Positions 2,451-35,240 are shown, counted from the stretch's first letter. The stretch: DNA of 35,621 nucleotides from a bacterium (GCA_013791675.1 VMTI01000114.1:1-35621), one strand, 5' to 3'. The notes: generated from the letters alone by a model not told the origin. A program made the numbers and translations.

Positions 2451-2504
2451 ATTATAATAAGTAAATAAATAAGTCGTGCCCGTAATAACCACCGACCTAT
2501 AAAC

Positions 2505-2539
2505 AGTGTAGCATTTTCCGAAAGCTTGTCAAGTACTTT
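2505..2539 (-). promoter_or_regulatory. putative antisense sigma70-type promoter pointing into terL
   Basis: Minus strand AAAGTACTTGACA, 16 bp spacer, TGc-TACACT; the 13-mer is identical to the one in the terS promoter. Confidence 0.45.
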
Positions 2540-2583
2540 ACTCTAAATTTTCCCCGAAATTCACTGCGCTATATTTTTCCCTA

Positions 2584-2612
2584 TTGACAAGTTTTATCGC
2601 ATATGTTAAAGA
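2584..2612 (+). promoter_or_regulatory. possible promoter for the portal/capsid operon
   Basis: TTGACA (2584-2589) in an AT-rich intergenic region; the -10 (TGt-TAAAGA) is weak. Confidence 0.3.
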
Positions 2613-2691
2613 AAAACAAGAATAGTATTTAATACTATTCTATAAAGTAAGGGGGTTATATGCGGTATGAACCAGTGAAGTGTGATAAAAT

Positions 2692-12955: not shown

Positions 12956-13801
12956 ATGCCAAATAGAAACATACAGCAAAGCCCGTGGAACCAGAATGTG
13001 CAGGCGGTGTCACAATTCCTTGAAACGCTGAACAACCTCAAAAAACAGCAATATGAAGGCGAACTGATGAAGCAATACGCTTCACAGGTCAGTCAGGAAA
13101 CCGACAAAAAGAAACTGCCCGAAATTATGAAACTCGTTGAGGGCGGAAATCTGACAGGCGCTCTTGAAATGGCTCTCCCTTCAATGGAGGCGCCCGCTAT
13201 TATGCAACAGAGGCAGGCGCCACAGACAGGCGGCTTTCTTTCACGGCTCGGCAATACCCTCAATCCCGTAGGCCAATATCGCGGCACCGGGCTGACACCA
13301 ACAGAGGCAACGATAACTGACGCTCGCGCCGGACAGACATCAAAGGCGCTGACACTGATAAGGAACATGCAGGCGCTGTTGGAAAGCCAAACTCCAAAAG
13401 CCGAAACAGAAGCGGCGCGCAAAAGACGAATGGCCGTTCAGGATATTGCCACATCACTGCAGAGGGGCTGGTGGAAGAATAAAAAGGGAGAAACGCTTGA
13501 TGTAACCAGCTCTGACCCGAATATGGTGATATCTGACATGGCAAGGGATTACGGCATTTCGGAAAGTGACCCCAGCGTTGTCGCTATCAAGAAGCAGATT
13601 AAAAATATAAAACCCGCACAGGCGAGAAAAGGAAAATGGAACCCGTTTGTCGAAAAGGCAGCGACACCATACGGAATAGAACTGAATAAATCGCAGAAGA
13701 CAACCTATAAATCGGCAAATGAAATAAAGAAGGCGTTTGCCGAAAATAAAATAACCGCTGTCGAGGCAAAGCAACAGTTGCTGAAATTCGGGTTCAAATA
13801 A
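12956..13801 (+). CDS. DNA ejection/internal virion protein 2
   Basis: Helical Q/A/K-rich 281 aa between ejection protein 1 and the giant gene; AAGGAGG RBS. Confidence 0.55.
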   Translation: MPNRNIQQSPWNQNVQAVSQFLETLNNLKKQQYEGELMKQYASQVSQETDKKKLPEIMKLVEGGNLTGALEMALPSMEAPAIMQQRQAPQTGGFLSRLGNTLNPVGQYRGTGLTPTEATITDARAGQTSKALTLIRNMQALLESQTPKAETEAARKRRMAVQDIATSLQRGWWKNKKGETLDVTSSDPNMVISDMARDYGISESDPSVVAIKKQIKNIKPAQARKGKWNPFVEKAATPYGIELNKSQKTTYKSANEIKKAFAENKITAVEAKQQLLKFGFK

Positions 13802-16800
13802 TGGCTCTATCAGCGGATGAATTCTTGGGAATAAAGCCGAAGCGAAAAGCGCAGTCGGCTGACGCATTCCTCGGTATCAAACCGTCCGCAGATGAATTCC
13901 TTGGAATACAGGAAGAACAGACCCCCAAACCATACGCCGGACTGACCCCGGAGCAAATCCAAGTGGAAAAGGAACGGCAACGGCAGGCCGGGACAATGCC
14001 GCAAACTCCGCAGGAACAATTTATACCCATGCCCGAAGGCGGCCCGCGCCGGGATGTATTCCAGCAACCGCCGCAAATACAACCGCCCATAGCGCAGGCG
14101 CCGGGAGCAATACAAATACCGCAGGCAATGCAAATGCCGACACCACAACAGCAGGGAATGCAAATGCCGTCAATGCCCGTGCCTCAACAAATGCAGCCAC
14201 AGCCCGGACCGCAAATGTTACCAGAGCAAGTGGAGCAATTAAGGCAGTCGGTACAGCCGGGGGAAATGGCAAAGATGATGTGGCAGGGCGCCGTAGAAGG
14301 CGGAGCGACCGCGGCTTCCGGTTTTACGGGTATCTACAAAGTGGGCGAACAAATAATCAAGGGCGAAGATTTGCTGACATCGATGCAGACCGCCACAGAC
14401 GCAATTCAAAAAGGACAAACTCTCGGAGATTTATTAAGAGAGGGATATGAGCCACAAACAAAAAGTGTATTCCAAAACTTTGTCGCTTACGCCGGACGAG
14501 ATTTGACAGCATGGGCTCTTGATACCATAACCAATCCCAAGGAACTCGCCGAACTTTATTTATGGTCGAAAGGTATAGGGATGATAAGGCGGGCAGGAGT
14601 AACCGGAGTAAATGCTATTGCGGAAAAATTCGTGGACAGCCCCGGAGTGCTCGGAAAACTATCCCGCGCGGGATTAGCGGAAAGAAAGCTCGCCGATGTA
14701 TTGCCGAAATATACCGAAGCCGACGCGGTGGCGATCAGGAAGTTTTTTTACAACGTGGACAATAAATTTGGTAGGGGCGCCGCAGATAGAGTATGGAGAA
14801 GTTTATACGAAAAAGGCAAGACATGGGAAAAATCCCGCGTGACGTCGTTAATACAAAAAATAAAGGGCGCTGGCGCAGAAAAGAGAACCGAACTATTGGC
14901 AAAGGAAATCTTGGGGCAGGTAAAAAAAGCACCTGTGCAAAGGGTATCAGAGGGAATAACAGGCGGAGAGGTAAAGGCGCGGCTCGGTCAATGGGGTGGC
15001 GGTGGAATCGGGAAAATCAAAACACCGAAGGGCGCCTCAACAGCCCTTGAGCAGATTGACGACCTGATAAAAACAAGGGCAAGTTTGCCGACAAAACCAA
15101 CGGCTGAAATGCCGAACCCTGACGCCGTGCTGAATGACATCACAGGCGCGATAAACAGCGCCGTAAAAGCCGCCGGAGAATACTTCAAAAGCGTGGGAGA
15201 AGAAGCATTCAGATATGCGTCCGGCGAAACCTTAAAAAACAAAATTATCGACCTCGTAAAGAAAAACCCCGAACTTAGGGAACATCTTGATATTCAGGTG
15301 CTTATGCCCGCCGCAGTATCTCCCGCAGCAAAGCCCGCAGAGGTTAAGCCCGCCATTGTATCAGAAGAAGCGCCCGAAGAAGAATACGTTGCCCCCACCG
15401 CCGAACAAGAGGAAACGGCGCGAATACTCGGCACGGCAGAGCTCACAAAAGAGGAAATCGCGCAGGGAAAGCAGGCAAGCGTAGGACGGCTGATATCCAG
15501 TATAGCCAAAACCGAACAGCGCGGCAATCCTTCAATATCATTTGCAGACCTCGTACAAGCCGGAAATATAGGAACCATGAAGGCCTATAAAAATTATATC
15601 CCCGGGGAAACGAAATTTTCAACATATGCCTACAAATCTATACGCTCCGCCATAAGAGAGGAAATAGCTCGGCAGAAAAACCTTATAACCTATCCACAGT
15701 CCGTGCGCCGAAAGCTCAATAGGGTATACAAAGCAATTTTTGAAATTCAACAGGACACCGGAATAGTTGATAGAATACCGCCAACATCGCGCATCGCCGC
15801 CAGAACCGGAATGCTAAATAAAGAAATAGATGAATTGCTCTCCACACAATTAACCCGCATGGAAAAACTTGAACAACAGGAAGAAGGGCAGAAAACGACC
15901 TATATTGAAACATTACCCGGCACAGAGGCGCGGCAGGTAGAAATAACCGAAATTAAAGACAGGGTTTCTCACCTGACGAAAGGACTATCCGAAAGAGAGC
16001 TCCAAATAATTGATTTAAAATATGGACTGACATCCGGCAGTACAATGAATGTGCGCGATATTGCCGATGAATTTAAAATATCAAAAACAAGAGTCGGTCA
16101 AATAATAGATATCGCCATAAGCAAGATGAAAGCCCGGGCCGGAATTACAACCGAAGCCACCGACGAACAAATAACAATGCTTTTCGAACATAAAAGGGCG
16201 CTAACGGAAACAGTGCAAACTGAACTCACCTTCGGAACTACGAAAAAAAGAGACGCCGGCGCGCTGGAAATGATTAAGAATATGGATCTGAACAAAGAGC
16301 GAGAGCAGGTAGTATTAAAGGAAATAAAAATCAAACATATAAAGACCGAGGGCTGGAAAATAACTGACGACAAAAGCGCCGTGAAATTCGTCAATCTTAT
16401 TCGCCACCCAGGGATAGAACATTTCACAATAATATACACGGACAAGACCGGGAAAATAATTACATACAAAGTATTCTCCAGCGGCGCCGTGGATTATGTG
16501 GATGTAAAAGAGCTATACCCGATACTCTCAAGGGATATGAAGGCCGACCCCAATATAGTAAACTTTTGGATAGGACATAACCATCCGTCCGGCAACCCTG
16601 AGGCCAGCACCAATGACAGAATTTTAATGAAAGCTCTGACAAAAATACCAAAATTCGCGGGACATATAATCACCGACCATAAGACATACACTTCTATCGG
16701 AAAAGACGGCTCCGAGCGTCTGAAACAGCAGACGCAAAAACTCGAAGACTGGAGTGGAGTAGAGAGCAGCATAAAATCAATAAACGATATTGCCAATTCA

Positions 16801-19800
16801 TTTATGGCGCTAACCAATAAAGACGCTAAAATGGCGGTGGCTATACTCACCACAAAACAGCAGAATACAATAGCCGCAGAGCTGATAAACGAAAAAGATT
16901 TATCAAAAGAAATGCTTGATAAATTGGAGAAAAAATACGGAGCCTCCAACATAACAATAGTATCGAATTTCAACATAAAAAATCCCGAAAGTGCCGGAAT
17001 TAAAAAAAGCAAGTGGGTGACTGAATACAACATTTACAACAGAGAGAAAAAGAAAATAACAGCAGAACTGGCCGAGCCCGCGTTCCGCGTAGCGGAAGAC
17101 GAAAAGGATAATCTCGGTGACTTCTCATATCTTCATACACCGGAAGAAACGGATATCCTGACTCCCACAAACGAGGAAATACAAAGGGAATGGGCTGGAA
17201 TAACCAGAGAGGCGCTGAATATTTGGAACAAAGAAAGAGAAACAAATTTTTTCTATATGATAGAACATGGCGAAAATCCATTCGGAGTAACAGGTTCGGA
17301 AGACCCGTCGTTACCGCCACCACAGAGAGCATGGATAGCCGATGGATTGGGCGGAGAATGGGACGCGTTGCCGGATTTCGTCAAAAAAAAGCTCAACCAG
17401 GCAGATATCCGATCCAAAGCATATAAGGCCACACACGCCGATACAGGCGGAACCGACAGATATACCGAGAGCATGGGGATAGATGATTTCAATACCGTGA
17501 TAGACGCCCTGCATAAAGTGAAACCCATAGGCAAACGCCCGACCGTTGCCGGCCCGGTAGATCATGACTTCATAAACCATTATTTTACATCGCCTGAAGG
17601 CCAGAAAGCATTGAGGGATAACAGGGAAGGCGGCATAACAAGCAAAGACGTCAAAGAAGAAATAGCGCGCATGGCAAGAATTATGATACAATGGGATGAG
17701 CAGGCCCCTATCATTCAACCCACTGGAAACAGCAAAGTGCCTGTCGCGGTGTACAGACGAACTGTCGAAAACACACAATTCAAGAAAGATAACTCGCCAA
17801 TGCAGTGGGCTGGCGCAAAAGACCAAATGCTTGGATATATCCTGAACATTCTCGGCCTGCCAAGCGAACTGAATAAAGTGACGGCCGCGGGACTTGAAAA
17901 ACTATCCCGCTTTGAATATGTCTATGACGTATTCGGGGGCTCGGGTTATATGACACTGCTTGCGCAAGAACTATTCAAGGACGCCGAAACAAACCTCAAC
18001 GAACTGGACGCCGACATGCAAAAGATATGGGCAACCATAAAAACCAACCCGGAAGGCGTAAAGGCGCGAATAGCCGAATTAAGCACGTGGATCCATATGC
18101 CCATGAAAAGTGTTCCTGTAGATTGGTGGAATCATCTCAAAGAGAAATTCGGCAAATATTATTGGGCGACCGATGAACTATGGACAGCCGCAACGATATT
18201 AAAAAACAACACAGGGCGTGACACTACAACAAAAATATCTCCAACCAAAGTCCACGAAATATGGAACTCCATAACCCCATACAGCCGGAAACTTAATAAA
18301 GCAAATATAGAACAAAGGGACGCCATAGAAATAATAGACGAAGCCCTAAAATTTCCACAGAACAAAGCGGAAAAAACTCTACTTATACTTGACCCTCCAT
18401 ATCTTTGGACATCAGGATACAAGCACGGCGCCAACTTCGAAAGACCCGCCGGATTTATGGAACTGCTCGATAAGCTGGAACAATTAAATAAAAAGGGAAT
18501 ATCCTTTATGTTTTTTAATTCAGAACCGGCGTCAGTATTCCCACGCGTCATATACGACTGGTCGCAATACCTGAAATTCGACGAAATGCAGCGGAGACTA
18601 AATGAACTCGCCGAAATGCCCGGTATGACAGTCCTTCGCATGGTGGCCCCGGCTGGCGTAGCCTCGTCTAAATTTGTTCCGAGAAAAGAAATAATCATCA
18701 CCAACCTTGAAACCGGAGGATATAAAGCAGGAAAGATAAAGAAACTCCCGTGGAGTAAAGTATCGGACTACATTAAGGTCACGAAAATCGGAATTGAACT
18801 GATAGGACAAGAAATAAAAGGCGCCCCCATAGAAAACCCCCTTACCACCAAACAAAAGAGAATGATCGCGGTATTGGCGAAAAACACTCCGTTCCAGTGG
18901 GAAGGCGATTACACTCACGAATTCCGGCAATTCGCCGAAAGGACAATTGGGAAAAAGCGCCTAACACTGATGACCGAAACCGAAGGCAAAGAACTCATCA
19001 GCGCCATTATGAAATACAAGAAAATAAACCGCGAGATAACCAACAGGACGCGAACAATGAATATGTCGCCGGCACTCTTGAAACAACAGATACACTCAAT
19101 ATTTCCCGACAAGCGCCGGATATCCGAACTTAACGACGAACAGCTCAAAATACTGAATGAATCGCTTACCCTATATGAACACACCGAAAGTGTCCCCATG
19201 CTTCATCTGATACGATACACTTCGGACTGGCTCGGCACATGGGCGGGCAGACAGAAAAGCCCAGCAGCAATGAACCTATACCACTCATTCAAAAGCCTTG
19301 AAGCCAACACAAAAGACGGCAGGGAATGGCGACTGAAACTGATACAGCAATTCAGAGAAGTATTCGAGGGAATGAACGCAAAACAGCGGGAAAAGATATT
19401 CAATTTTATGCACCGACCCAAAGGCACGACAATGGCTGAATTTATGGCAGAACGCGAAACCTATGGCCTGACAGACGCGGAAAAGAAAGCGGCCCTGCAG
19501 GCCCGCGAGCTATGGAACCGGCTATTCAAAGCCGCCGGCATGAAGGGGGAGAGATATTGGAAAGAATACCAGCCCCTCATCTTCCGCATGCTCAAAGACC
19601 CCGATACCGTAATAAAAGAATTCCGTCACCTTCCAAAAAAAGAGGTCGAGATGTTCTTCGAGAAACAGAGAATAGCCGAAGGCGACTTCATACTCGCCGG
19701 CGCCGAACAATTGACAGACCCCATAGAACTGTTTGAAATATATTCTGCGGGAGTGGTAAAAAAGAAATACATATGGCCGGCCGCGGCAAACGTGGAGAAA

Positions 19801-21252
19801 TACTTCCCGCTCGTTCCCAAAACCGTGAGAAACGCGATGTCATATATTTTGAATGATTTACTCGGTAAACAACACCCATTAGTAGAACAAATTGACGCCG
19901 GACTGCAGCGCGCCGTTCAGGCGGCTATTGACAACAAATTGGGGAGAGCAGTTAAAACCGAAGAAGCCCTCAACTGGCTCGGCTTTACAACCCGCGGGAG
20001 AATGATTGACGGAAATATATCGACACTCCGGGACTTGGTATATGCCGACCTGATAGGAACACTCGGATCAGCCATAAAGAATACCACGCAGGAAACACAT
20101 ATAATCGCGGAATATGGCGGAGTAAAATGGAGTCGCGCGGCCTGGCGGAGTAAAACCGCAAAAGGCAGACAGGAAACAGACGAGGCCGATATCTATACCC
20201 TCGGCGTTGGCGTTAAATTCAGCAAAGGCAAAGGCGCTATAGGCGAAGCTTCTCAAGTAATGACAACCCTGTTCAGAGCAAAAGACAAAGGCAGTCGCCA
20301 GAAGGCATACCTCTGCGGAATAATAACGGCAGAAGACTGGGTGCCTAAATATGAAGCCGGGAAGATAACGGCAGACGAATTGGCGAGCAAACTAAAATTC
20401 ACATTGAGAACAGACGCTCAATACCAAATAGGAATGATGGTTATACTGGACGACCCAAAAGCGTATACCGAACCGGTTATCAATAACCTGACAAAAAGGG
20501 TAAGAGATAAAATACTGAAACTGAAAGAAACCGACCCCATTGCCGCAAAGATATTCTATCTCGGTCACCTTTCCGGCTATTGGGCGCAAGCAATGACACA
20601 ATACCCATATTACGCCGAAGAAACGGAAGCGCTTTATCGCGGGCCGGCAGGTAAACTGCTGGGGACATTCGGAACATGGCCTCCCCGTTTTGCCGCTATG
20701 GTAAACCGGTGGGCTCACGGCGGGGCTGACGGACGCAAGGCATTCATCAGATATATCCTGCAATGGATTTTAATAATAACAGCAGGTTCGACGATGGGTA
20801 TCAATTTCAAGAAATGGATAGGCCCTGCATCGTGGAGAATAGGGAACGGTTTTGCCACTGTACTTGGTGCCCCCGGTTATCTGGCGTTGGCTATCTCAAG
20901 TTATGTAGGCAGTATTATGACCGACAGTAAATGGGATTTAACAAAAGCAAATGATTGGATGTATAAAATGAGAGGAAGTATACGCGCCCCCGGACAAAGG
21001 CAAATCAAATCAACTGTCGAAGCCCTAACCACCCCGGGATTAACAGACTGGGAAAGATTAAAGATATTCACGCAAATGCCCCAGACTGAAGAATTTTCAG
21101 AGAAGCGCCGGAAGATAAAGCGAGATGTAAAAAAGGCAATAAAAAGTAAATCAACATACCAGGGCGGAACAGTACGAACCGGATCGTCCGGCGAAACCGT
21201 GAGAAGCGGAGGAACAGTAAGCACCAGAAGCGGCGGAACCGTGAGGAGATAA
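13801..21252 (+). CDS. giant polyvalent ejection-type protein (2483 aa) with sigma70-like, RadC/JAB and Dam-like N6A MTase domains
   Basis: Third gene of the ejection cluster. Sigma ~15480-16140; RadC ~16357-16700 (HNHPSG at 16576); MTase ~17794-18708 (DVFGGSG at 17926, DPPY at 18391); helical C-terminus with hydrophobic segments ~20740-20920. Confidence 0.9.
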   Translation: MALSADEFLGIKPKRKAQSADAFLGIKPSADEFLGIQEEQTPKPYAGLTPEQIQVEKERQRQAGTMPQTPQEQFIPMPEGGPRRDVFQQPPQIQPPIAQAPGAIQIPQAMQMPTPQQQGMQMPSMPVPQQMQPQPGPQMLPEQVEQLRQSVQPGEMAKMMWQGAVEGGATAASGFTGIYKVGEQIIKGEDLLTSMQTATDAIQKGQTLGDLLREGYEPQTKSVFQNFVAYAGRDLTAWALDTITNPKELAELYLWSKGIGMIRRAGVTGVNAIAEKFVDSPGVLGKLSRAGLAERKLADVLPKYTEADAVAIRKFFYNVDNKFGRGAADRVWRSLYEKGKTWEKSRVTSLIQKIKGAGAEKRTELLAKEILGQVKKAPVQRVSEGITGGEVKARLGQWGGGGIGKIKTPKGASTALEQIDDLIKTRASLPTKPTAEMPNPDAVLNDITGAINSAVKAAGEYFKSVGEEAFRYASGETLKNKIIDLVKKNPELREHLDIQVLMPAAVSPAAKPAEVKPAIVSEEAPEEEYVAPTAEQEETARILGTAELTKEEIAQGKQASVGRLISSIAKTEQRGNPSISFADLVQAGNIGTMKAYKNYIPGETKFSTYAYKSIRSAIREEIARQKNLITYPQSVRRKLNRVYKAIFEIQQDTGIVDRIPPTSRIAARTGMLNKEIDELLSTQLTRMEKLEQQEEGQKTTYIETLPGTEARQVEITEIKDRVSHLTKGLSERELQIIDLKYGLTSGSTMNVRDIADEFKISKTRVGQIIDIAISKMKARAGITTEATDEQITMLFEHKRALTETVQTELTFGTTKKRDAGALEMIKNMDLNKEREQVVLKEIKIKHIKTEGWKITDDKSAVKFVNLIRHPGIEHFTIIYTDKTGKIITYKVFSSGAVDYVDVKELYPILSRDMKADPNIVNFWIGHNHPSGNPEASTNDRILMKALTKIPKFAGHIITDHKTYTSIGKDGSERLKQQTQKLEDWSGVESSIKSINDIANSFMALTNKDAKMAVAILTTKQQNTIAAELINEKDLSKEMLDKLEKKYGASNITIVSNFNIKNPESAGIKKSKWVTEYNIYNREKKKITAELAEPAFRVAEDEKDNLGDFSYLHTPEETDILTPTNEEIQREWAGITREALNIWNKERETNFFYMIEHGENPFGVTGSEDPSLPPPQRAWIADGLGGEWDALPDFVKKKLNQADIRSKAYKATHADTGGTDRYTESMGIDDFNTVIDALHKVKPIGKRPTVAGPVDHDFINHYFTSPEGQKALRDNREGGITSKDVKEEIARMARIMIQWDEQAPIIQPTGNSKVPVAVYRRTVENTQFKKDNSPMQWAGAKDQMLGYILNILGLPSELNKVTAAGLEKLSRFEYVYDVFGGSGYMTLLAQELFKDAETNLNELDADMQKIWATIKTNPEGVKARIAELSTWIHMPMKSVPVDWWNHLKEKFGKYYWATDELWTAATILKNNTGRDTTTKISPTKVHEIWNSITPYSRKLNKANIEQRDAIEIIDEALKFPQNKAEKTLLILDPPYLWTSGYKHGANFERPAGFMELLDKLEQLNKKGISFMFFNSEPASVFPRVIYDWSQYLKFDEMQRRLNELAEMPGMTVLRMVAPAGVASSKFVPRKEIIITNLETGGYKAGKIKKLPWSKVSDYIKVTKIGIELIGQEIKGAPIENPLTTKQKRMIAVLAKNTPFQWEGDYTHEFRQFAERTIGKKRLTLMTETEGKELISAIMKYKKINREITNRTRTMNMSPALLKQQIHSIFPDKRRISELNDEQLKILNESLTLYEHTESVPMLHLIRYTSDWLGTWAGRQKSPAAMNLYHSFKSLEANTKDGREWRLKLIQQFREVFEGMNAKQREKIFNFMHRPKGTTMAEFMAERETYGLTDAEKKAALQARELWNRLFKAAGMKGERYWKEYQPLIFRMLKDPDTVIKEFRHLPKKEVEMFFEKQRIAEGDFILAGAEQLTDPIELFEIYSAGVVKKKYIWPAAANVEKYFPLVPKTVRNAMSYILNDLLGKQHPLVEQIDAGLQRAVQAAIDNKLGRAVKTEEALNWLGFTTRGRMIDGNISTLRDLVYADLIGTLGSAIKNTTQETHIIAEYGGVKWSRAAWRSKTAKGRQETDEADIYTLGVGVKFSKGKGAIGEASQVMTTLFRAKDKGSRQKAYLCGIITAEDWVPKYEAGKITADELASKLKFTLRTDAQYQIGMMVILDDPKAYTEPVINNLTKRVRDKILKLKETDPIAAKIFYLGHLSGYWAQAMTQYPYYAEETEALYRGPAGKLLGTFGTWPPRFAAMVNRWAHGGADGRKAFIRYILQWILIITAGSTMGINFKKWIGPASWRIGNGFATVLGAPGYLALAISSYVGSIMTDSKWDLTKANDWMYKMRGSIRAPGQRQIKSTVEALTTPGLTDWERLKIFTQMPQTEEFSEKRRKIKRDVKKAIKSKSTYQGGTVRTGSSGETVRSGGTVSTRSGGTVRR
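15480..16140 (+). other. sigma70-family domain (regions 2, 3, 4) inside the giant protein
   Basis: RLISSIAK..DLVQAGNIGTMKA..KFSTYAYKSIRSAI..PPTSRIAARTG..LSERELQIIDLKYGL..IADEFKISKTRVGQIIDIAISKMK is colinear with RpoD RLVISIAK..DLIQEGNIGLMKA..KFSTYATWWIRQAI..EPT.EE.A..LT.RE..VL..RFG...VTRERIRQIEAKALRKL. Confidence 0.92.
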
Positions 21253-25641: not shown

Positions 25642-26133
25642 ATGAAAAAGTTTACATATTATCTGGTAGCGATAGCTCTGTTTTCAACACAATGCCACGC
25701 ATGGTCATGGTTCGGCGCCGAATTCAAGAACGAAATGACCAAGCAGCAGAACAGCACCAACAAGCGCCTATCCGATATTAAGGCCGGAATCAATGATGTT
25801 CAGCTTAAGCTCGGAAATATCTCGCTGTCTCTCCAGGCCCAGGCAAACGCCACCGCAAAGGTTCAAGCCGGAATCGACAAGAGCAATACGCAGAGCGCCG
25901 GCCGCGATATTATCTCAACAGAGAACAACAGCACAGAACTGATGCTTAAAATCTTTGAGGGCGTCTCGGCCTTGTTTCTCGCAATGTTCGCTTTCATGAA
26001 GGCCCGCGTAAATGTGCTCTCGAAACAGAACGAATATCTTACCGAAAGCCGAAAAAAATATCAGGATCGCTTTCTGAAACTGCTTTCCCCGGAATACGAA
26101 AAACTCGTAGACAAGGAAAATCCCGAATCGTAG
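25642..26133 (+). CDS. membrane/periplasmic coiled-coil protein, possibly spanin-like
   Basis: Signal-peptide-like N-terminus, coiled coil, second hydrophobic helix (IFEGVSALFLAMFAFM); last gene of the lysis cassette. Confidence 0.5.
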   Translation: MKKFTYYLVAIALFSTQCHAWSWFGAEFKNEMTKQQNSTNKRLSDIKAGINDVQLKLGNISLSLQAQANATAKVQAGIDKSNTQSAGRDIISTENNSTELMLKIFEGVSALFLAMFAFMKARVNVLSKQNEYLTESRKKYQDRFLKLLSPEYEKLVDKENPES

Positions 26134-26212
26134 AACGAAAAAAAAGAAAACCCCCGCAACAACCGAAAATCTTTCTCACCCCCCTACCCCCCAGACGCTT
26201 TCGCATTCTGTT

Positions 26213-26244
26213 CTATTATGTGTCAGATTACCGGATTTGTCCAG
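26213..26244 (-). promoter_or_regulatory. phage-specific promoter motif, copy P1 (leftward)
   Basis: Minus strand CTGGACA-AATCCGGTAATCTGACA-CATAAT-AG. Confidence 0.75.
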
Positions 26245-26778
26245 CCCAACATCAAAATCCAAACATAAATTCCCCGATTTCACTCACAAATCAACAGAAA
26301 CCCCTCAAATTCGCTGTTTAAGCCACTTTCCCCCATTCAACGAGTAACGAGCCGATACTTTAACCATTATGCGAAATTTAAACCATAAAACCCCCCATAG
26401 CTTTTGAAATTAAACCAATGTCAAGACCCCCTCTTTGGCACTGGATGGCATATTATAGGGGTGTACCACGGTTCATCACTCGACCCAGTGCGCCCTATAT
26501 GGCGAGCCGACACCCCCCTCCCCCCCCTATGCAATGAGCAGAACAACGGCGACCGCGAAAGGACAGCACCAGGATCGCAGCACTACACACAGCACAGCAC
26601 AGGGCAGGGGCAGGCAATACAGGGTAGAGCCGGTTCGTAATACGCACGAGGTCGAGCACAGAGGCACGAACGACAGCGACGGCAGACACAGACACGCGGG
26701 AGAAGGCGAGCACAACAGACAGCAAGCGAAGCAGGGCAGTAGCGATAACGGCGGGGAGAGCGTGAAAATCAAGGCGTC

Positions 26779-26876
26779 GCAAGGACTTTCAAGCCCAAGT
26801 TGTGATAATGTTGATTATGTAAACTTTTAGAGACCGGAGAGCCCACGAAAATGCCGACAGGGCAAGGACTTTCAAG
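26779..26876 (+). repeat. 15-bp direct repeat GCAAGGACTTTCAAG (26779-26793, 26862-26876)
   Basis: Exact repeat on either side of the first dif-like site. Confidence 0.85.
26798..26825 (+). other. dif: dif-like XerC/XerD recombination site 1
   Basis: AGTTGTGATAA-TGTTGA-TTATGTAAACT: 11-6-11 layout, partial dyad, right arm matches the B. subtilis-type XerD arm TTATGTAAACT. Confidence 0.8.
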
Positions 26877-26935
26877 GGCAAATACTACTTAATACCCCTT
26901 AATACCCTTTCACGAAGGGTGCACGAACAGGGAAA

Positions 26936-26963
26936 AGTTTACATAACATATTTTACTTTCCGA
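26936..26963 (-). other. dif-like site 2, inverted, degenerate XerC arm
   Basis: Minus strand TCGGAAAGTAA-AATATG-TTATGTAAACT. Confidence 0.6.
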
Positions 26964-27270
26964 AGGACAGAGCCAAAAAAGAGGGCAAATCGTACCCCAA
27001 CGAACTCCCCGAAGCAGCGGCCGGCGCACCGAAGGGAAAAAGAAAGGCGAGCGAAAGCCGAAAGGCGGGAGCCGGGCGGGAGCCAGCAGTAAACAGCGAG
27101 AACAATAGAGATAGAATAAATAAAGAGACAACAACAACAACAAAGAGAAAGAACAGAACAAAGAGAACAGAACAGAACAGAACTAAGAACAGAACAACGC
27201 ACGCACGCGAAACAAGACGCGCGAAAGACAAGGGGGGCAAGGCTCGGGACAAAGGCTCGAACAAACCCGA

Positions 27271-27302
27271 CTGGACAAGAGGGCAAAAGCAACACATAAT
27301 AC
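27271..27302 (+). promoter_or_regulatory. phage-specific promoter motif, copy P2 (early genes)
   Basis: CTGGACA-AGAGGGCAAAAGCAACA-CATAAT-AC, ~70 bp upstream of the first early ORF. Confidence 0.8.
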
Positions 27303-27374
27303 AACAGCAGCGGACGACAGGACGCCGGAAAGAACGAAGCCGAGCGGACAGAAGCGGACGAAAGAGAGGACAAA

Positions 27375-28445
27375 ATGGAAGACAGAAGCGGAACAAAGAC
27401 AAAAAGCGAAATCAAATGGCTGGAAGAAGCGAAACACAACCGCTACCTAAGCCTGGCGGGAGAAGGGAGACTGCACACGCTGAAGTGGAACGAGGCACGG
27501 AAGGAAGGAGACCGCCGGAAGGCGGAAAGCGAGGAAGAAATGATAAACCACGAAACAGACAAAGCGGCGGCGCGCAACACCATCAAAGTCGGCGACACCG
27601 TAACCGTAGACCCACAGCTGACCACAGACCCCTACAACCGCAGAGGACAGAGCGGAACGGTAACGCAACTGATGGGCGACAAGGCCACGGTCACCTACGA
27701 GAAACCGCACGAGGCCTGCAACGGATACCGCACCAGGGCAGGCTACTACCACACAGACGCCCTGATAAAGCAGGAGCCGGAAGACGAAGGACTGCCGACA
27801 CCGGAGCAGGACGCGCAAATCGCCAAAGAGCGGAAAGCATACGAAGACACGGAGCGCGAGCCGGAGAGAACCAGAAAAGAACATCTCATCCACCAGTACA
27901 ACCACGGCGCAATCACGACAGCGGAGCAGAAGGAGCTGGACGCACTGGAAGCGAGGGAAAGAATGGACAAGAATTTCAAAGAGCCGGAGGACACGTTCAA
28001 CGGCAGGCTGAACAAACACGCAAAACCGAGCGACACACAGACAGAGCGGGTAAAAGCAGCCTACGAAACAGGGCTGGAACACGGCAGGGAAATCGCGGAG
28101 GAGGAAGCGGAAGAACAGCGCGACAACGCCACGATAGCCGGATACGAACAGGGCTACGAGGCAGGGCGCAAAAGAAGCGCGATCCGCGGAAACAAAGCGG
28201 AAGACGGAGCGGAGCAAGAAGCAGACGGCCTGATAGGAAAGGGAATCACCATCACCGGCCTGGACGAGCTGGGCTGGTGCGAAATCTGGTGGGCAATAGA
28301 CGCGGCCGTAATCAGCAGACTGGGCACAATGAAGACAGCAACGCACCAGGACGAAGTGGACTGGGCGACAAACGCCGTGAAGCAACTGCAGAACGCCAAA
28401 AAGCAGATAGGGAAAATAGCACATCCGATAGGGGCAGAGGACTAA
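27375..28445 (+). CDS. early protein, charged, with a KOW/SH3-like segment
   Basis: GAGAGGA RBS; IKVGDTVTV...GQSGTVTQL.GDKATVTY resembles a KOW/SH3 barrel; synonymous T avoided. Confidence 0.7.
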   Translation: MEDRSGTKTKSEIKWLEEAKHNRYLSLAGEGRLHTLKWNEARKEGDRRKAESEEEMINHETDKAAARNTIKVGDTVTVDPQLTTDPYNRRGQSGTVTQLMGDKATVTYEKPHEACNGYRTRAGYYHTDALIKQEPEDEGLPTPEQDAQIAKERKAYEDTEREPERTRKEHLIHQYNHGAITTAEQKELDALEARERMDKNFKEPEDTFNGRLNKHAKPSDTQTERVKAAYETGLEHGREIAEEEAEEQRDNATIAGYEQGYEAGRKRSAIRGNKAEDGAEQEADGLIGKGITITGLDELGWCEIWWAIDAAVISRLGTMKTATHQDEVDWATNAVKQLQNAKKQIGKIAHPIGAED

Positions 28446-28447
28446 AC

Positions 28448-28511
28448 GCCGAAACCCGGGACAGCAACCGGGTCCGCGGGAAACGGTCAATCCGCGCTGA
28501 TGAGGCAGACC
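28448..28511 (+). ncRNA. type II hammerhead ribozyme
   Basis: GCC-GAAA-CCCGG/CCGGG-TC-CGCGG/CCGCG-CTGATGA-GGC: full core; GUC cleavage after 28474; loop I GGTC can pair with 3' tail GACC. Confidence 0.92.
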
Positions 28512-28546
28512 ACAATACCGGCAGCAGGCCGGAAAGAGAGGAAAAG

Positions 28547-28783
28547 ATGAACGCGATCGACGCAAAGACAAAAAAGAAAAGCCGCCCATTCGTGCTGTGG
28601 GCAGACTGGAGAGATGCCAGCTCGCTGATGAGAACCCTGTGCCGGCTGACAAACAAGAGACCCCGGTGCTACAGATACATAAACACCGGAGCAGACGACA
28701 TCGCCGTGATAGTAAGCGACACCCGGCTAACAGAGAAAGAAGCGGACGCCGCATACTCGGCATGGATAAACGGGAAAGGCTAA
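28547..28783 (+). CDS. hypothetical early protein (78 aa)
   Basis: GAGAGG RBS before MNAIDAKTKK; the real part of the long track ORF 27416-28783. Confidence 0.65.
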   Translation: MNAIDAKTKKKSRPFVLWADWRDASSLMRTLCRLTNKRPRCYRYINTGADDIAVIVSDTRLTEKEADAAYSAWINGKG

Positions 28784-28818
28784 ACGAACCGCCGGACACC
28801 GGCAGAGGAGAGGGTAAA

Positions 28819-29139
28819 ATGACACACAAACTAATCATAATCAGCCTGCACGACGCACAAGCGGAATGCACCTGCGGACACTGGCGAATGATAGGAACAG
28901 GGGAGCGGAGCAAGAAAGAGATACGAGCGGAATACAGAAAGCACAAAAAAGGAGAAAGCACAATGGAAACAAACAAGACCGAAGTTTTCAAATCAGCAGT
29001 AGGCGACAGAAAGGGATGGGCATTTTCAGTAGGCAGGAACTTTGTATCGGCGCTCTACAAGACACAAAAGGAGGCCAAGCAAAAACTGAAAGCCTACTTG
29101 GGAACAGGCAAGTTTGACTGGTACGGGACTGCGGAATAA
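28819..29139 (+). CDS. hypothetical early protein with in-frame internal start at 28963
   Basis: GAGGAG RBS before MTHKL (CTCGH motif); second AAGGAG RBS before METNK. Confidence 0.6.
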   Translation: MTHKLIIISLHDAQAECTCGHWRMIGTGERSKKEIRAEYRKHKKGESTMETNKTEVFKSAVGDRKGWAFSVGRNFVSALYKTQKEAKQKLKAYLGTGKFDWYGTAE

Positions 29140-29155
29140 AAAGGAGGAAAGCAAA

Positions 29156-29404
29156 ATGAAGCAATGGAAAATCAACGTGTTCAAGGACTGCATCGTGGAA
29201 ACGGACGGAGAGAAAACGCGGATAGTATGCGAGCGCCCTAATTACAGAGGGTCGGAGGAAAACTTCGAGAAGGACGGAGCGCTCATCGCGGCCGCGCCGG
29301 AACTGCTTGATGCGTGTAAAATGGCAGTAAAAAAACACGGCGAATTTGATTATCTTATGAAGGCAATCGCAAAAACGGAAGGGGGCGAGGATGATTATCA
29401 TTAA
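29156..29404 (+). CDS. hypothetical phage protein (LIAAAPELL motif)
   Basis: AAGGAGG RBS; DGALIAAAPELLDAC motif common in small phage early proteins. Confidence 0.7.
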   Translation: MKQWKINVFKDCIVETDGEKTRIVCERPNYRGSEENFEKDGALIAAAPELLDACKMAVKKHGEFDYLMKAIAKTEGGEDDYH

Positions 29405-29570
29405 AATTGAAACAGAGAACGCAGCATTTGAAGCGCCGGACAAAGACCACGAGGCCGCGCGGATATTGCGGAAGCTCGCGGACAGGTTAGACCGTCACGA
29501 TTGGCCTGTATCGCTTTATGATATAAACGGGAACAATGTTGGAACAGTGGAGGAAAAAGAATATGAATAA
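29391..29570 (+). CDS. 59-aa phage protein
   Basis: MIIIKIETENAAFE...EAARILRKLADRL...DINGNNVG; missing from the ORF track; overlaps both neighbours. Confidence 0.7.
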   Translation: MIIIKIETENAAFEAPDKDHEAARILRKLADRLDRHDWPVSLYDINGNNVGTVEEKEYE

Positions 29571-29904
29571 TGAACTCAAATGCACAGACGAAATAGTCAA
29601 CGGAAGGCAGGCGCTGAAGCGGCATGACGGCCTGGTGGTATTCCCGGACGCTAACGACCCGGAATTGGACGCAATCCGCAAGAGCGCGCCAAAGAAGGCA
29701 GTCATACAAGCCGTGGCGATCCGCAGGGCACAACAGATAGCGCATAACTACGCGGAGAAATACGCGCCGGAACTCCTGCCGTATTTCAAGATAACCCCGC
29801 TGATAAACAACCGGCGCATGCGGAGATATTTGACAAGCGGAGCGCGATTGAAGCGCGAAAAACTGGACAAACGGGAAAATCTAACACATAATAGGGTGCA
29901 ATGA
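29563..29904 (+). CDS. hypothetical protein
   Basis: GGAGG RBS before MNNELK. Confidence 0.6.
   Translation: MNNELKCTDEIVNGRQALKRHDGLVVFPDANDPELDAIRKSAPKKAVIQAVAIRRAQQIAHNYAEKYAPELLPYFKITPLINNRRMRRYLTSGARLKREKLDKRENLTHNRVQ
29863..29894 (+). promoter_or_regulatory. phage-specific promoter motif, copy P3 (recombination/replication genes)
   Basis: CTGGACA-AACGGGAAAATCTAACA-CATAAT-AG. Confidence 0.8.
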
Positions 29905-30040
29905 AACAAATTGATAGCAGCGGACATCGGAAAGCAACAACCGGCAACGAACAAATTTTAACGTCCGGCTCGACCCAACGGAGGACATCATCACGTCCGC
30001 TGCACCCGCGGGCGGCCGGACTAAAAAAGGACAAAATACA

Positions 30041-30313
30041 ATGAAAGAAGAAAAGCCGATACAGGAAAAAATAGTTTACGACATCATGTCCATAATCTGC
30101 CCCGCGCGAACAGAGCTGATAAAGATAGCGGCCATGAGGCGCGGCGTATCATGCGCGGACAGACACATGAGGTTTCTGTCAGACCGGGGAATCGTAATAA
30201 ACGTTAAAAAAGCGAAGAGCGACGACAGCACGGACACATGGGAAGTTGTCGCGCCGTACACGCCCAAGAAGATCGGCCCGAAATATCAGGCGGACTTGGG
30301 ATTGGTATTATAA
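30041..30313 (+). CDS. hypothetical, possibly winged-helix DNA-binding protein
   Basis: AAGGA RBS; ADRHMRFLSDRGIV helix followed by a beta hairpin. Confidence 0.5.
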   Translation: MKEEKPIQEKIVYDIMSIICPARTELIKIAAMRRGVSCADRHMRFLSDRGIVINVKKAKSDDSTDTWEVVAPYTPKKIGPKYQADLGLVL

Positions 30314-30324
30314 GGAGCGCCAAA

Positions 30325-30525
30325 ATGACCAAACCGATAACCCACTGCGGAGAAATAGCAGACGCAATCAAGAAGATATTCCCGGACATCGTAGAATTCC
30401 ACCAGCTTCGGGAGAGCATACTCATGCGGATAAAGCACAGCGACGGCAAGAAATACACGATAACGATACACCCGGAGCAGAGGATAAGCGCAGCAACCAA
30501 AAAGGAAAGAGGGGTAAATGAATAA
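30325..30525 (+). CDS. hypothetical protein
   Basis: AAGGAG RBS before MTKPITHC. Confidence 0.55.
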   Translation: MTKPITHCGEIADAIKKIFPDIVEFHQLRESILMRIKHSDGKKYTITIHPEQRISAATKKERGVNE

Positions 30526-31336
30526 GCTTTCAACGGAACTCGATAAGCGCTCCCTCGGCATGAGTGGCATAAATATGCTCTTTAAGTGCGGCGAGCAATT
30601 CCGTCGCCGTTACATTATGAACGAAATCGTCCCGCCCGGCATAGCCCTCATTATAGGAAGCAGCACCCACAAAAGCATAGAAGTCGACCTCACCGAAAAG
30701 AAAGACACAGGCAAGCTGGCACCCGGCGACCTGCTGGCAGAAATAGCGTCCGAGCAGATAAAAGGCGCATGGGATAAGGGCGTGATATTGAACGATGACG
30801 AAAAGCTGGCCGGCAAGCGGGCAACACGAAACGACGCCATAAACACAGCCATAGCCATGTCAAACCTTCATCACGAAATCGTGGCCCCAACCATAGAGCC
30901 AATAAACTTAGAGGACTATTTCAGCTTCGACATCAGCGGAACGAACTGGAAGCTGGCGGGCACATCCGACATCGAGGAAAAGGTGGCAGGCGGTATCGGA
31001 CTGCGGGACACGAAGACAGCAGGGAAATCCCCGGGGAAGACAGACGCGGACGACAGCCGGCAGCTCACAATGTATTCGCTCAAAGTATTAAAGCAAACGG
31101 GATCCCTGCCGAAGCACATACAGCAGGATTACCTCATCAAAAACAAAACACCGAAATATGTTTCACAGGAAACAGAGCGCACAGCGGGCGACATCAAAAC
31201 CCTGCTGGTATGCGTGGCGCAGGCGATAAAAGTGATAGAATCAGGGATATTCACGCCATGCAGCACATCAGCATGGTGGTGTGCCCCGGCATATTGCGGA
31301 TACTTTGGCACGTGTAAATATAGGAGGAGAGGATAA
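30518..31336 (+). CDS. PD-(D/E)XK exonuclease, Cas4/RecB-like
   Basis: N-terminal Cys, GSSTH, LAGTSD..LRDTKT, QLTMY, C-terminal C..YCGY..TC cluster. Confidence 0.85.
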   Translation: MNKLSTELDKRSLGMSGINMLFKCGEQFRRRYIMNEIVPPGIALIIGSSTHKSIEVDLTEKKDTGKLAPGDLLAEIASEQIKGAWDKGVILNDDEKLAGKRATRNDAINTAIAMSNLHHEIVAPTIEPINLEDYFSFDISGTNWKLAGTSDIEEKVAGGIGLRDTKTAGKSPGKTDADDSRQLTMYSLKVLKQTGSLPKHIQQDYLIKNKTPKYVSQETERTAGDIKTLLVCVAQAIKVIESGIFTPCSTSAWWCAPAYCGYFGTCKYRRRG

Positions 31337-33463: not shown

Positions 33464-34219
33464 ATGGCCGAAGTAAAACAGGAACTGACAAAGAAAGACC
33501 AGGCAAGCGCTCTGGTTGACTGGATGAAACCCGCAATGGCGACCGCCCTGCCCCGGCACCTGAACGCCGACCGCATGGTGCGAATCGTGCTCACAGAGAT
33601 GAGGCGCAACCCCAAACTGGTGACCTGCACAAAGCAGAGCCTGGCCGGATCCGTGATCATGGCCTCACAGCTTGGCCTCGAACCCGGAGTAAACGGGCAG
33701 TGCTGGCTCGTGCCCTACGGCAACGAAGCAACATTCATCATCGGGTATCAGGGGCTCATCGAGCTGGCCTACCGCAGCAACATGGTGGAATTCGTAATAG
33801 GAGAAGCCGTGTACGAAAATGACGAATTCACTTACTCGCTCGGCACAGAGCAGTTTATCAAGCACGTGCCGGCAGAGGCCGACCGCGGGAAGCTCAAAGC
33901 GGCCTACGCCGTAGCCAAAATGAAAGGCGCGAGCATGCCCGTATTCAAAGTGCTGACGAAAGAAGATATCCTCAAAGTAAAGGCATCTTCGCCCGCGGCC
34001 AACAGCGCACACAGCCCGTGGAATACGTGGCCGGAAACGATGTGGGTAAAGACAGCCGTCAAAAAGCTGATGAAATTCATCCCGAAATCAGCGGAGATTA
34101 ACAAGGCGTTGGAAGCGGACGACAGGGTGGACGCGGGAAAACCGCAGCCCTTTAGCGACGTCATCGACCTGCCGGAGGAGAAGGAAGGAAAGGGAATCGA
34201 GATAGAGGACGTAAAGTAA
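33464..34219 (+). CDS. recT: RecT single-strand annealing recombinase
   Basis: ALPRHLNADRMVRIVLTE.RRNPKL..C...S, SQLGLEPG, LVPY, IIGYQGLIELAYRS, SPW..WPETMWVKT. Confidence 0.95.
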   Translation: MAEVKQELTKKDQASALVDWMKPAMATALPRHLNADRMVRIVLTEMRRNPKLVTCTKQSLAGSVIMASQLGLEPGVNGQCWLVPYGNEATFIIGYQGLIELAYRSNMVEFVIGEAVYENDEFTYSLGTEQFIKHVPAEADRGKLKAAYAVAKMKGASMPVFKVLTKEDILKVKASSPAANSAHSPWNTWPETMWVKTAVKKLMKFIPKSAEINKALEADDRVDAGKPQPFSDVIDLPEEKEGKGIEIEDVK

Positions 34220-34307: not shown

Positions 34308-35240
34308 ATGAGAAAAACTAAACCCCGCAAACGATATAGCGACTGCGCTCGCTGGCACACCAAAAAGTGGCGCACCATGCCCACGCACCTCAAAGTGCTG
34401 TGGCAATACATATGGGAGAACGCCAACTGCGCCGGAATATGGGAGCCCGAGCTCGCCCTCATGGGAATTGAGGCCGGTGGCGTACCCATAAACGAAACAG
34501 AAATCAAGAAGGCCTTCGGCGAAGATATCCTCATCCTCCCGCACGGCGAATGGTATATAATAGGATTTATCAAATTCCAATATGGCAAAGAGCTCGAACA
34601 GATGAACCCCAAGAGCATGCTCCACGCCGCAGTCCTGGCGGCCGCAAAGGATAAGGGAATAGGCAGGGGCAGGATAATGGGGCTGATGTCAAATCCGATA
34701 GCGCCGGAAATCCCCGCGCCGATAGTGGCCCCCTTGCCTGACCCCGGGCCGGCGCCGGAAGCCATAGAACCGGTAAAAGACCCTACTTATAAGGAAAAGC
34801 AACCGGAACTCCCAACAATACCCCCGCGCCCAGTCCAAGCGGGCACATATTACGGTACCACAACGAACTTCGAGAGCATATGGGCTAAATACCCCCAGAA
34901 GACAGGGAAACGCGGCGCATGGGCGCATTTCAAGGCACAATGCCGAACCGCCGCAGACTGGGAGGCCATAAACATCGCATTGGCGAATTATTTGAAAAGC
35001 CCGCGGGTGAGAGACGGGTATATACAGGACGGCGAAACATGGTTCAATAACTGGAAGGACTGGGTGGCCGATCCTAACGCCGCGATAGAGAAGAAAAAAC
35101 CGGACGATGATTTTGTGCCGATAACATGCACGACATGCAGCCGGAAATTCGCCGTGCCCAAGGATGTGGCAAAGGCGATAGCGGATGAAGAAAAGGACTT
35201 TGTGTGTAGGGACTGCCGAAAAAGAGAGCGGCCGGAATGA
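34308..35240 (+). CDS. replication initiator / replisome organizer with C-terminal Zn finger
   Basis: LKVLWQYIWENANCAGIW N-domain, Pro-rich linker, FESIWAKYPQKTGK..A....K and YIQDGETWFN..W.D, CxxC...CxxC. Confidence 0.75.
   Translation: MRKTKPRKRYSDCARWHTKKWRTMPTHLKVLWQYIWENANCAGIWEPELALMGIEAGGVPINETEIKKAFGEDILILPHGEWYIIGFIKFQYGKELEQMNPKSMLHAAVLAAAKDKGIGRGRIMGLMSNPIAPEIPAPIVAPLPDPGPAPEAIEPVKDPTYKEKQPELPTIPPRPVQAGTYYGTTTNFESIWAKYPQKTGKRGAWAHFKAQCRTAADWEAINIALANYLKSPRVRDGYIQDGETWFNNWKDWVADPNAAIEKKKPDDDFVPITCTTCSRKFAVPKDVAKAIADEEKDFVCRDCRKRERPE

Follow-up and report, generated by a model that had tools for sequence, protein, structure and literature searches.

Bacteriophages are known to redirect transcription by two routes, i.e., by a sigma factor made after infection or by a whole RNA polymerase carried in the virion. 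The giant virion RNA polymerase of phage N4 is said to enter the cell with the DNA and to use a few conserved, phage-specific early promoters. Virion polymerases of the phiKZ type enter with the DNA and start early transcription at conserved phage promoters (PMC7318152). The sigma-70-family proteins gp36 of phage phiEco32 and gp47 of Salmonella phage 7-11 act with the host core polymerase on a conserved phage-only motif, which for gp47 is bipartite with the consensus GTAAtg-16-aCTA (PMC8948821). Both proteins are free-standing and read middle or late promoters, whereas the early promoters of these phages depend on host sigma-70. Polyvalent proteins, described by Iyer, Burroughs, Anand, de Souza and Aravind in 2017, are proposed to be delivered with the DNA of phages and conjugative elements to 'jump-start transcription or replication' (PMC5512222). 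Here we analyze a contig of an uncultured groundwater phage (GCA_013791675.1, VMTI01000114.1:1-35621), whose full 35,621 nucleotides are called the window in the following. It carries three copies of one bipartite motif (P1, P2 and P3) and encodes a sigma module within a protein of 2483 residues.

We propose, at a probability of roughly 0.45, that P1 to P3 are a private class of promoters for a sigma factor of the phage itself, which would probably be delivered by the virion. As in phiEco32 and 7-11, a sigma-70-family protein would work with the host core polymerase at a conserved phage-only motif; unlike there, the sigma factor is built into a late virion-block protein, and the motif stands at early genes. 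The polymerases of N4 and phiKZ are complete and independent of the host core enzyme, whereas here we propose that only the specificity subunit is supplied, with the sigma-70 geometry kept. Like polyvalent proteins, the giant protein unites RadC-like JAB and DNA methyltransferase domains in one phage polypeptide, and its delivery is proposed from its position in the virion block. Unlike the polyvalent proteins in the main text of PMC5512222, it also has a sigma module; 'sigma' occurs 0 times in that main text, which is separate from the supplementary domain tables.

If the proposal is true, a virion-borne sigma factor with private immediate-early promoters would stand between the two known routes, early expression would be independent of the host primary sigma factor (sigma-A) and compete with host promoters from the first minute, and transcription-initiation specificity would join the activities of injected polyvalent proteins. 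If functional, the module of about 260 residues and the 31-bp promoter would be an orthogonal pair small enough for in vitro study.

Three exact copies of a bipartite motif

The pattern CTGGACAA-N13-ACACATAATA is 31 bp long and has 18 fixed bases in two blocks. It has exactly three exact copies in the window, at 26244-26214 on the minus strand (P1) and at 27271-27301 (P2) and 29863-29893 (P3) on the plus strand. An earlier note on this DNA had described three copies with 18 shared bases and equal spacing, which the exact pattern search confirmed. The coordinates given there stood as well, apart from the intervals of 32 nucleotides, which are one base too long; the extra base (G, C and G, respectively) is not conserved. 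Its remark that the structural genes hold no full copy agrees with our scan of the window.

With up to three mismatches allowed, the window still had just these three matches. Dinucleotide shuffles (n = 100) gave 0.02 matches on average, and none of the 100 gave three. The half-blocks are confined to the motif, i.e., all three occurrences of CTGGACAA and all three of ACACATAATA in the window lie in P1 to P3, and the bare hexamers TGGACA (29 times) and CATAAT (31 times) are frequent. Up to five mismatches and gaps of 12-14 yielded 14 rows, composed of the three perfect copies, two shifted self-hits and nine others. Since 30 shuffles under the same settings gave 3-17 rows, the motif has no degenerate copies above background, and its distribution is all-or-none.

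The alignment of the three copies is identical in 18/18 block columns, 3/13 spacer columns, 1/40 upstream and 3/40 downstream columns, so that 7/93 columns are identical outside the blocks. With every block base fixed and the spacer and flanks at background, the copies are old enough to have been randomized wherever the sequence was free to change. A de novo search for bipartite 6+6 words with at least three copies returned the motif family and four unrelated three-copy pairs (8 rows, both strands), and the corresponding count in ten shuffles was 0-6. This search gave no other repeated bipartite motif on the contig for a phage sigma factor to read.

The motif is not a host regulon, because the rest of the 2.14-Mb bin to which the phage contig was assigned has no copy outside the phage at up to two mismatches. 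IMG/VR gave 0 matches and JGI metagenomes 15 single matches, none of them related to the window. Among 26 genomes of the phylum, the sole other match was the same phage contig in a second bin.

A stretch at 28763-28783 on the plus strand is identical in 18 of 21 positions (86%) to the -35 block and spacer of P3; it has no -10 block and sits at the stop codon of the frame 27416-28783. It may be a decayed fourth copy of the motif. A fourth copy may also lie in a missing kilobase of the genome (see below).

P1 to P3 have sigma-70 geometry with fixed departures

In each copy, a promoter scan recognized TGGACA-17-CATAAT, i.e., two hexamer-like blocks within the 17 +/- 1 bp of sigma-70-type promoters, at the optimal spacer of 17 bp and with 10 of 12 consensus positions. 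P1 to P3 have in common with canonical TTGACA-17-TATAAT the two hexamers, the spacer length, A at -11 and T at -7, and all copies keep -33G, -32A and -31C as well. They differ from it by G at -34 and C at -12, which are fixed in all copies, and by ACA instead of the optional TGn at -15 to -13. Six additional flanking bases are the same in all three copies. With identity in all block columns, the copies deviate from sigma-70 in the same way and conserve the ACA before the -10 hexamer, just as the earlier note had stated.

The conserved stretches span -36 to -29 and -15 to -6, and nothing is conserved outside them. These are the zones that sigma regions 4.2, 3.0, 2.4/2.3 and 1.2 touch. Part of these contacts in the sigma-70 holoenzyme is covered by PMC2613000.

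P1 has its TGGACA at 26243-26238 and its CATAAT at 26220-26215, with a predicted start near 26207-26208. P2 ends 74 nt upstream of the first early ATG (27375) and has a predicted start near 27307. P3 lies in the last codons of the open reading frame (ORF) 29536-29904, and transcription is predicted to begin near 29899-29900. Both P2 and P3 are placed upstream of genes in matching orientation, and ORF and domain annotation bore out that P2 precedes the first early gene and P3 the recombination and replication genes. The gene downstream of P2 has a GAGAGGA-type ribosome-binding site and a start codon, which were picked up as a repeat. P1 is directed into the 3' end of the late operon, with the early genes behind it, and the only ORF that follows is a doubtful one of 55 codons. 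The ATG of this ORF at 26206 (minus strand) is 8 nt past the -10 block, and its frame overlaps the end of a plus-strand gene. RNA folding downstream gave z-scores of -1.5 (P1), -2.7 (P2) and -1.0 (P3), suggesting neither a structured RNA nor a terminator, and an Rfam scan found nothing at the motif copies.

At P3, an ATG at 29901 (plus strand) likewise stands exactly 8 nt past CATAAT; P2 has no such ATG. This spacing at P1 and P3 would mean near-leaderless mRNAs. The frame that opens at 29901 has 47 codons (29901-30044) and overlaps by ATGA with the next gene, which starts at 30041.

We consider the three sites very probable promoters from their predicted anatomy. Alternatively, the motif could be a site for a replication initiator, a packaging protein or a repressor around an origin- or packaging-like region. 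P1 and P2 do lie near both ends of a repeat-rich, 1.2-kb non-coding region, and P1 has no convincing gene downstream. This explanation has to contend with P3, which is 2.6 kb away inside a coding region, with the -35/-10 geometry and exact 17-bp spacer of all three copies, and with the orientation of P2 and P3, which matches the gene direction. Moreover, the blocks have neither dyad nor direct symmetry, are unlike in either orientation, and no copy contains an inverted repeat. The absence of dyad symmetry, the mark of sites for dimeric repressors, argues against a classical operator. We therefore regard a non-promoter role as very improbable.

Host promoter preference

The main rival to reading by a phage sigma factor is that host sigma-A uses P1 to P3 as ordinary early promoters. 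The shared extra bases would then stem from common descent and strength tuning, or from an overlapping regulator, and the phage sigma factor would do something else, e.g., serve unrecognized late promoters or host genes, or hold the host core polymerase. If so, what remains is an early-promoter family of unusual rigidity in an orphan phage.

We compared the motif with the promoters of the host, taken by binning as the rest of the bin, by counting TTGACA-N16-18-TATAAT and its variants against control spacings. The perfect form occurred 16 times versus 2.5 at control spacings. Tolerated substitutions were enriched, with A, C and G at the third -10 position found 18, 11 and 8 times, respectively. 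Neither T to G at -34 (2 versus 1.5) nor T to C at -12 (2 versus 1.5) was enriched. The motif departs from the host consensus, as it has neither the preferred T at -34 nor the preferred T at -12, and because the binned host shows no enrichment of these substitutions, both departures fall on positions that matter to the host enzyme. In host RpoD (493 residues), the Trp pair, Gln437 and Arg584/Glu585/Arg588 are retained, and a second host sigma factor of 277 residues has the same reading residues.

The canonical reading residues of host RpoD speak for the host enzyme, as do the 10/12 hexamer match, the 17-bp spacer and the retained -33G, -32A, -31C, -11A and -7T. Reading by host sigma-A alone would, however, leave unexplained why three copies keep the same weakening bases at -34 and -12 together with ACA, whereas their spacers and flanks have drifted to background, and it gains nothing from a host that shows no enrichment of -34G or -12C. 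Nor are there orphan half-sites pointing to a separate binding protein, or an alternative motif on the contig for the phage sigma factor.

A sigma module within a giant virion-block protein

The giant ORF (13801..21252, plus strand) lies in the middle of the virion block and encodes 2483 residues in one uninterrupted frame with all domain matches. Its sigma module (15418..16200, plus strand) covers about residues 540-800, with region 1.2-like, 2, 3 and 4 sequences; it is the candidate for reading the motif and follows a linker rich in Pro, Ala and Glu. Elsewhere the protein has a RadC-like JAB domain (residues 860-960) and, at 1323-1574, a stretch resembling DNA methyltransferases, and its C-terminal part is hydrophobic. 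The union of these domains with a sigma module in a single frame of 2483 residues is the architecture of a polyvalent protein. The protein opens with three short peptide repeats of the ADEFLGI type, each ending in K or Q (13801-13910, plus strand).

Pfam Sigma70_r2 (PF04542) matched the module with 36.8 bits versus a cut-off of 24, and with 42.1 bits in a further scan. The sigma-70 superfamily model TIGR02937 was passed with 75.4 bits versus 42.9. NCBIfam RpoD_Cterm aligned over positions 11-227 of 238 with residues 540-800, to the end of region 4 (E 1.9e-25). The module is far below every cut-off of the RpoD and FliA families (98.5 versus 384.5 bits at best) and does not belong to the primary sigma factors. 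PDB sequence matches were sigma-A chains, from region 2.1 to region 4.2. Region 2.2 is well conserved in an alignment with host RpoD.

An AlphaFold2 model built from 35 sequences had a mean predicted local distance difference test (pLDDT) score of 83.4; only the region 3.2 linker was low, and region 4 was at 91-98. Foldseek matched it best with sigma-A chains of initiation complexes over 227-287 aligned columns. Both the sigma-2 and the sigma-4 domain were recognized, sigma-4 marginally by Pfam and with support from NCBIfam and the model. As judged from domain matches and the predicted structure, the module is a complete sigma-2, sigma-3 and sigma-4 unit.

The earlier note had argued from the identical non-consensus bases for a dedicated factor and had spoken of a phage sigma factor. 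The argument holds, with 18/18 block columns against diverged spacers and no host enrichment of -34G or -12C; that the phage sigma factor is this reader is our inference. A phage sigma factor is present according to Pfam, NCBIfam and AlphaFold2, not as a free-standing gene but as a module of a late, virion-type ORF of 2483 residues, and the mechanism hence differs from that of the earlier note.

Promoter-reading residues

We mapped the reading residues of the module onto E. coli numbering with PDB coordinates and alignments and tallied each position over 34 homologues; the register of region 2 follows in part a numbering that we take to be correct. Three residues are kept, namely Y430 (Y in 32/34), R586 (R in 33/34) and Q589 (Q in 31/34). 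At positions 433 to 458, the phage has K for W433 (26/34 W), S for W434 (33/34 W), S for Q437 (29/34 Q), R for T440 (11/34 T), S for H455 (24/34 H) and R for E458 (28/34 E or D). At the -35 readers, it has K for R584 (31/34 R), T for E585 (30/34 E) and G for R588 (32/34 R).

According to PMC2613000, Q437H and T440I act as suppressors of a T-to-C change at -12, the G:C pair at -14 is recognized by H455 and E458, and R584 is responsible for -31 and E585 for -33. The phage sigma factor is altered at the readers of -12 and -14 (Q437, T440, H455 and E458), i.e., where the motif departs from consensus, and the exchange of Glu for Arg at 458 opposite the G-to-C change at -14 is suggestive. It is also altered at the readers of -33 and -31 (R584 and E585, and also R588), though the motif is canonical there. 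The residue evidence, as far as the alignments allow, points both ways.

Proposed reading by the phage sigma factor and its proposed delivery

Three considerations lead us to prefer the phage sigma factor as the reader of P1 to P3. Host sigma-A alone leaves identical weakening bases in drifted copies unexplained; a separate DNA-binding protein would need to recognize two dissimilar blocks, set 13 bp apart, that match the sigma contact zones; and the contig encodes one such protein and no other repeated motif for it. That the phage sigma factor reads the motif is, in our estimate from these comparisons, slightly favoured.

Several observations weigh against this interpretation. The motif is still identical to the sigma-70 consensus in 10 of 12 positions. 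With R584, E585 and R588 lost, a more divergent -35 block would be expected, and the lack of these readers of the retained -35 bases in the phage sigma factor favours host sigma-A. The W433/W434 pair is absent from the phage sigma factor. The Pfam match for Sigma70_r4 (PF04545) reached 23.9 bits, just under its cut-off of 24.1. The searches described below found no relatives in which covariation between sigma factor and motif would show. The host was assigned by binning alone, and no CRISPR (clustered regularly interspaced short palindromic repeats) spacer linked phage and bin; the sole short match was one 22-mer outside any repeat array. Packaging of the giant protein in the particle is probable from gene position and domain make-up only. 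To our knowledge, early promoters are read by the host enzyme in phages without a virion polymerase. In phage 7-11, early promoters depend on host sigma-70 and the phage sigma factor reads late ones (PMC8948821), which again fits host sigma-A as the reader. We consider reading by host sigma-A alone a realistic if rather doubtful explanation.

For reading by the phage sigma factor, we propose the following course of events. P2 and P3 would fire rightward into the two early gene blocks, and P1, across the 1.2-kb non-coding region from P2, would fire leftward. The departing bases (-34G, -12C and ACA at -15 to -13) would be held fixed since the reader is not the host primary sigma factor; the reader would be the complete sigma module of the 2483-residue polyvalent protein encoded among the virion genes. 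A sigma factor from a late virion-block gene could act on early promoters only if carried over, from which we infer virion delivery. The giant protein would most likely be packed in the particle and enter with the DNA, and the host core RNA polymerase would be re-aimed at P1 to P3 from the first minute. A predicted complex of the sigma-2 part with a host beta-prime clamp-helix fragment scored 0.21 versus a mark of 0.34 in a run without controls, and it weighs neither way on binding.

Alternatively, the phage sigma factor might read the motif but be synthesized in the course of the infection, either within the complete giant protein or as a product of an internal start. Host sigma-A would then serve the first round at the same near-consensus sites, and the phage sigma factor would reinforce or prolong early, replication and P1 antisense transcription. 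The motif is near enough to consensus for such dual reading, the sigma factor is encoded in the late block, and the Pro/Ala/Glu-rich linker could mark a separable unit. A late sigma factor feeding back on early genes has no obvious use, however, and giant multi-domain proteins are described as co-delivered with DNA in PMC5512222. We judge synthesis during infection unlikely.

Reading of the motif by the phage sigma factor together with its delivery in the virion is, by the same comparisons, somewhat short of an even chance. Marginally more tentative is the full proposal that the phage injects the specificity subunit only, such that the complete sigma factor in the giant polyvalent virion protein would capture the host core polymerase on entry and direct it to the three identical private promoters; two of these would drive the early operons, and P1 and P2 would fire apart near the ends of a probable origin or packaging region.

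Search for relatives

A search of 1.84 billion representatives with the sigma module gave 25,852 matches at E <=0.001 and only the giant protein itself at E <=1e-30; no relative was found below E 7e-27 in this set. Five large representative matches were scanned for domains. Four had sigma domains only, and the fifth (P0002) had nine region-4 copies in a run and weak matches to other helix-turn-helix families; RadC-like or methyltransferase domains were in none of the five. Word-index searches for homologues of the giant protein returned only the giant protein itself. Among longer sigma-bearing proteins, the 120 listed of 270 all had sigma domains as their only Pfam domains. A protein atlas gave only stand-alone sigma clusters (score 0.85), which we take as a lead only. 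Across these searches, no other protein combined a sigma factor with RadC-like or methyltransferase domains. Sigma factors from a phage collection were at most 32.9% identical to the module.

In IMG/VR, queries with the sigma module and the portal found no relative. The exonuclease query found 2 loci (27% and, over a partial match, 50% identity), whose records had no match to the giant protein. With RecT we found 7 loci that share RecT alone, none of them carrying the motif at up to two mismatches. A literature search for injected or virion-borne sigma factors gave nothing relevant; matches to 'virion-associated sigma' were reovirus sigma proteins. A likeness of the -10 block to a sporulation-sigma consensus found no backing in the literature and carries no weight here.

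Occurrence of the phage

The window is one whole phage contig (C209) in a bin of 301 contigs. The same phage contig occurs in a second bin of the same genus (G008:C31:1-35594). Over 35,594 bases the two versions show 6 differences; five fall within 10134-10167, and none is close to the motif. The second bin supports the host genus weakly, unless both bins share a binning artefact. Window-identical contig pieces were also found in four other groundwater runs from 4 studies, with no differing letters over 26100-30000. Two contigs of one groundwater run (X7) match the window perfectly up to 27341 and again from 27382, and beyond these points their sequence is unlike it; a variant population therefore carries different DNA between P2 and the start of the early genes.

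The contig is open-ended. Its first bases (1-110) belong to a cytosine-methyltransferase-like C-terminus, and its two ends share no overlap. The same giant protein is also indexed on a contig of 36,739 bases, and about 1.1 kb of the phage genome is probably missing from the window.

Genome organization and further features

All credible genes are on the plus strand. The late or virion block (1-26133) encodes a DUF1064 protein, a gp3-like small terminase, the large terminase, portal, major head protein and virion proteins, and further a fibre-like protein with carbohydrate-binding modules, an HNH endonuclease and an endolysin. The non-coding region of 1.2 kb (26134..27374) extends from the last late to the first early gene; P1 and P2 lie close to its left and right ends, respectively, and are oriented away from each other. 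The first early operon downstream of P2 (27375..29904, plus strand) comprises an ORF of 356 residues (27375-28445), a hammerhead ribozyme and small ORFs. The second early block downstream of P3 (30041..35418, plus strand) encodes a PD-(D/E)XK exonuclease (30518-31336), RecT (33464-34219) and a replication-initiator-like ORF (34308-35240), all on the plus strand.

The type II hammerhead ribozyme (28447-28514, plus strand; Rfam RF02276) scored 44.4 bits versus a gathering score of 37 over the full model (1-66). It sits in the 101-nt gap between the end of the first early ORF at 28445 and the next ATG at about 28547, and it would cut a P2 transcript between the first two early genes.

The coding strand is extremely depleted of T at 26500-29100 (plus strand), i.e., over the right part of the non-coding region and the first early operon. 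AT skew is 0.52-0.84 per 200-nt window there, with the exception of 0.35 at 26700-26899, and 0.05-0.46 in most other windows of the profile. T depletion entails long spurious ORFs on the minus strand and a plus strand without U-tract terminators.

The non-coding region contains C-tracts, direct and inverted repeats and a microsatellite. Two C-tract direct repeats of 16 nt (CACCCCCCT-CCCCCC type, 94% alike) at 26177-26192 and 26511-26526, 334 bp apart, flank the P1 segment. A direct repeat of 47 nt, 70% alike, is found at 26752-26798 and 26835-26881. Furthermore, there is a perfect inverted repeat of 14 nt (26815-26828 and 26933-26946), of which a third copy (25646-25658) lies at the start of the ORF 25642-26133, and an AGAAC microsatellite of about 10 units at 27146-27196. 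The stretch between the outward-firing P1 and P2 could serve as an origin or in packaging.

A second unusual gap, 241 nt long and T-rich, lies between the large terminase and the portal gene (2451-2691, plus strand). It holds TTGACA-17-TAAAGA preceded by TG, as well as a perfect 11-bp hairpin (about 2620-2644), and might serve the virion genes as a host-type promoter or a control region.

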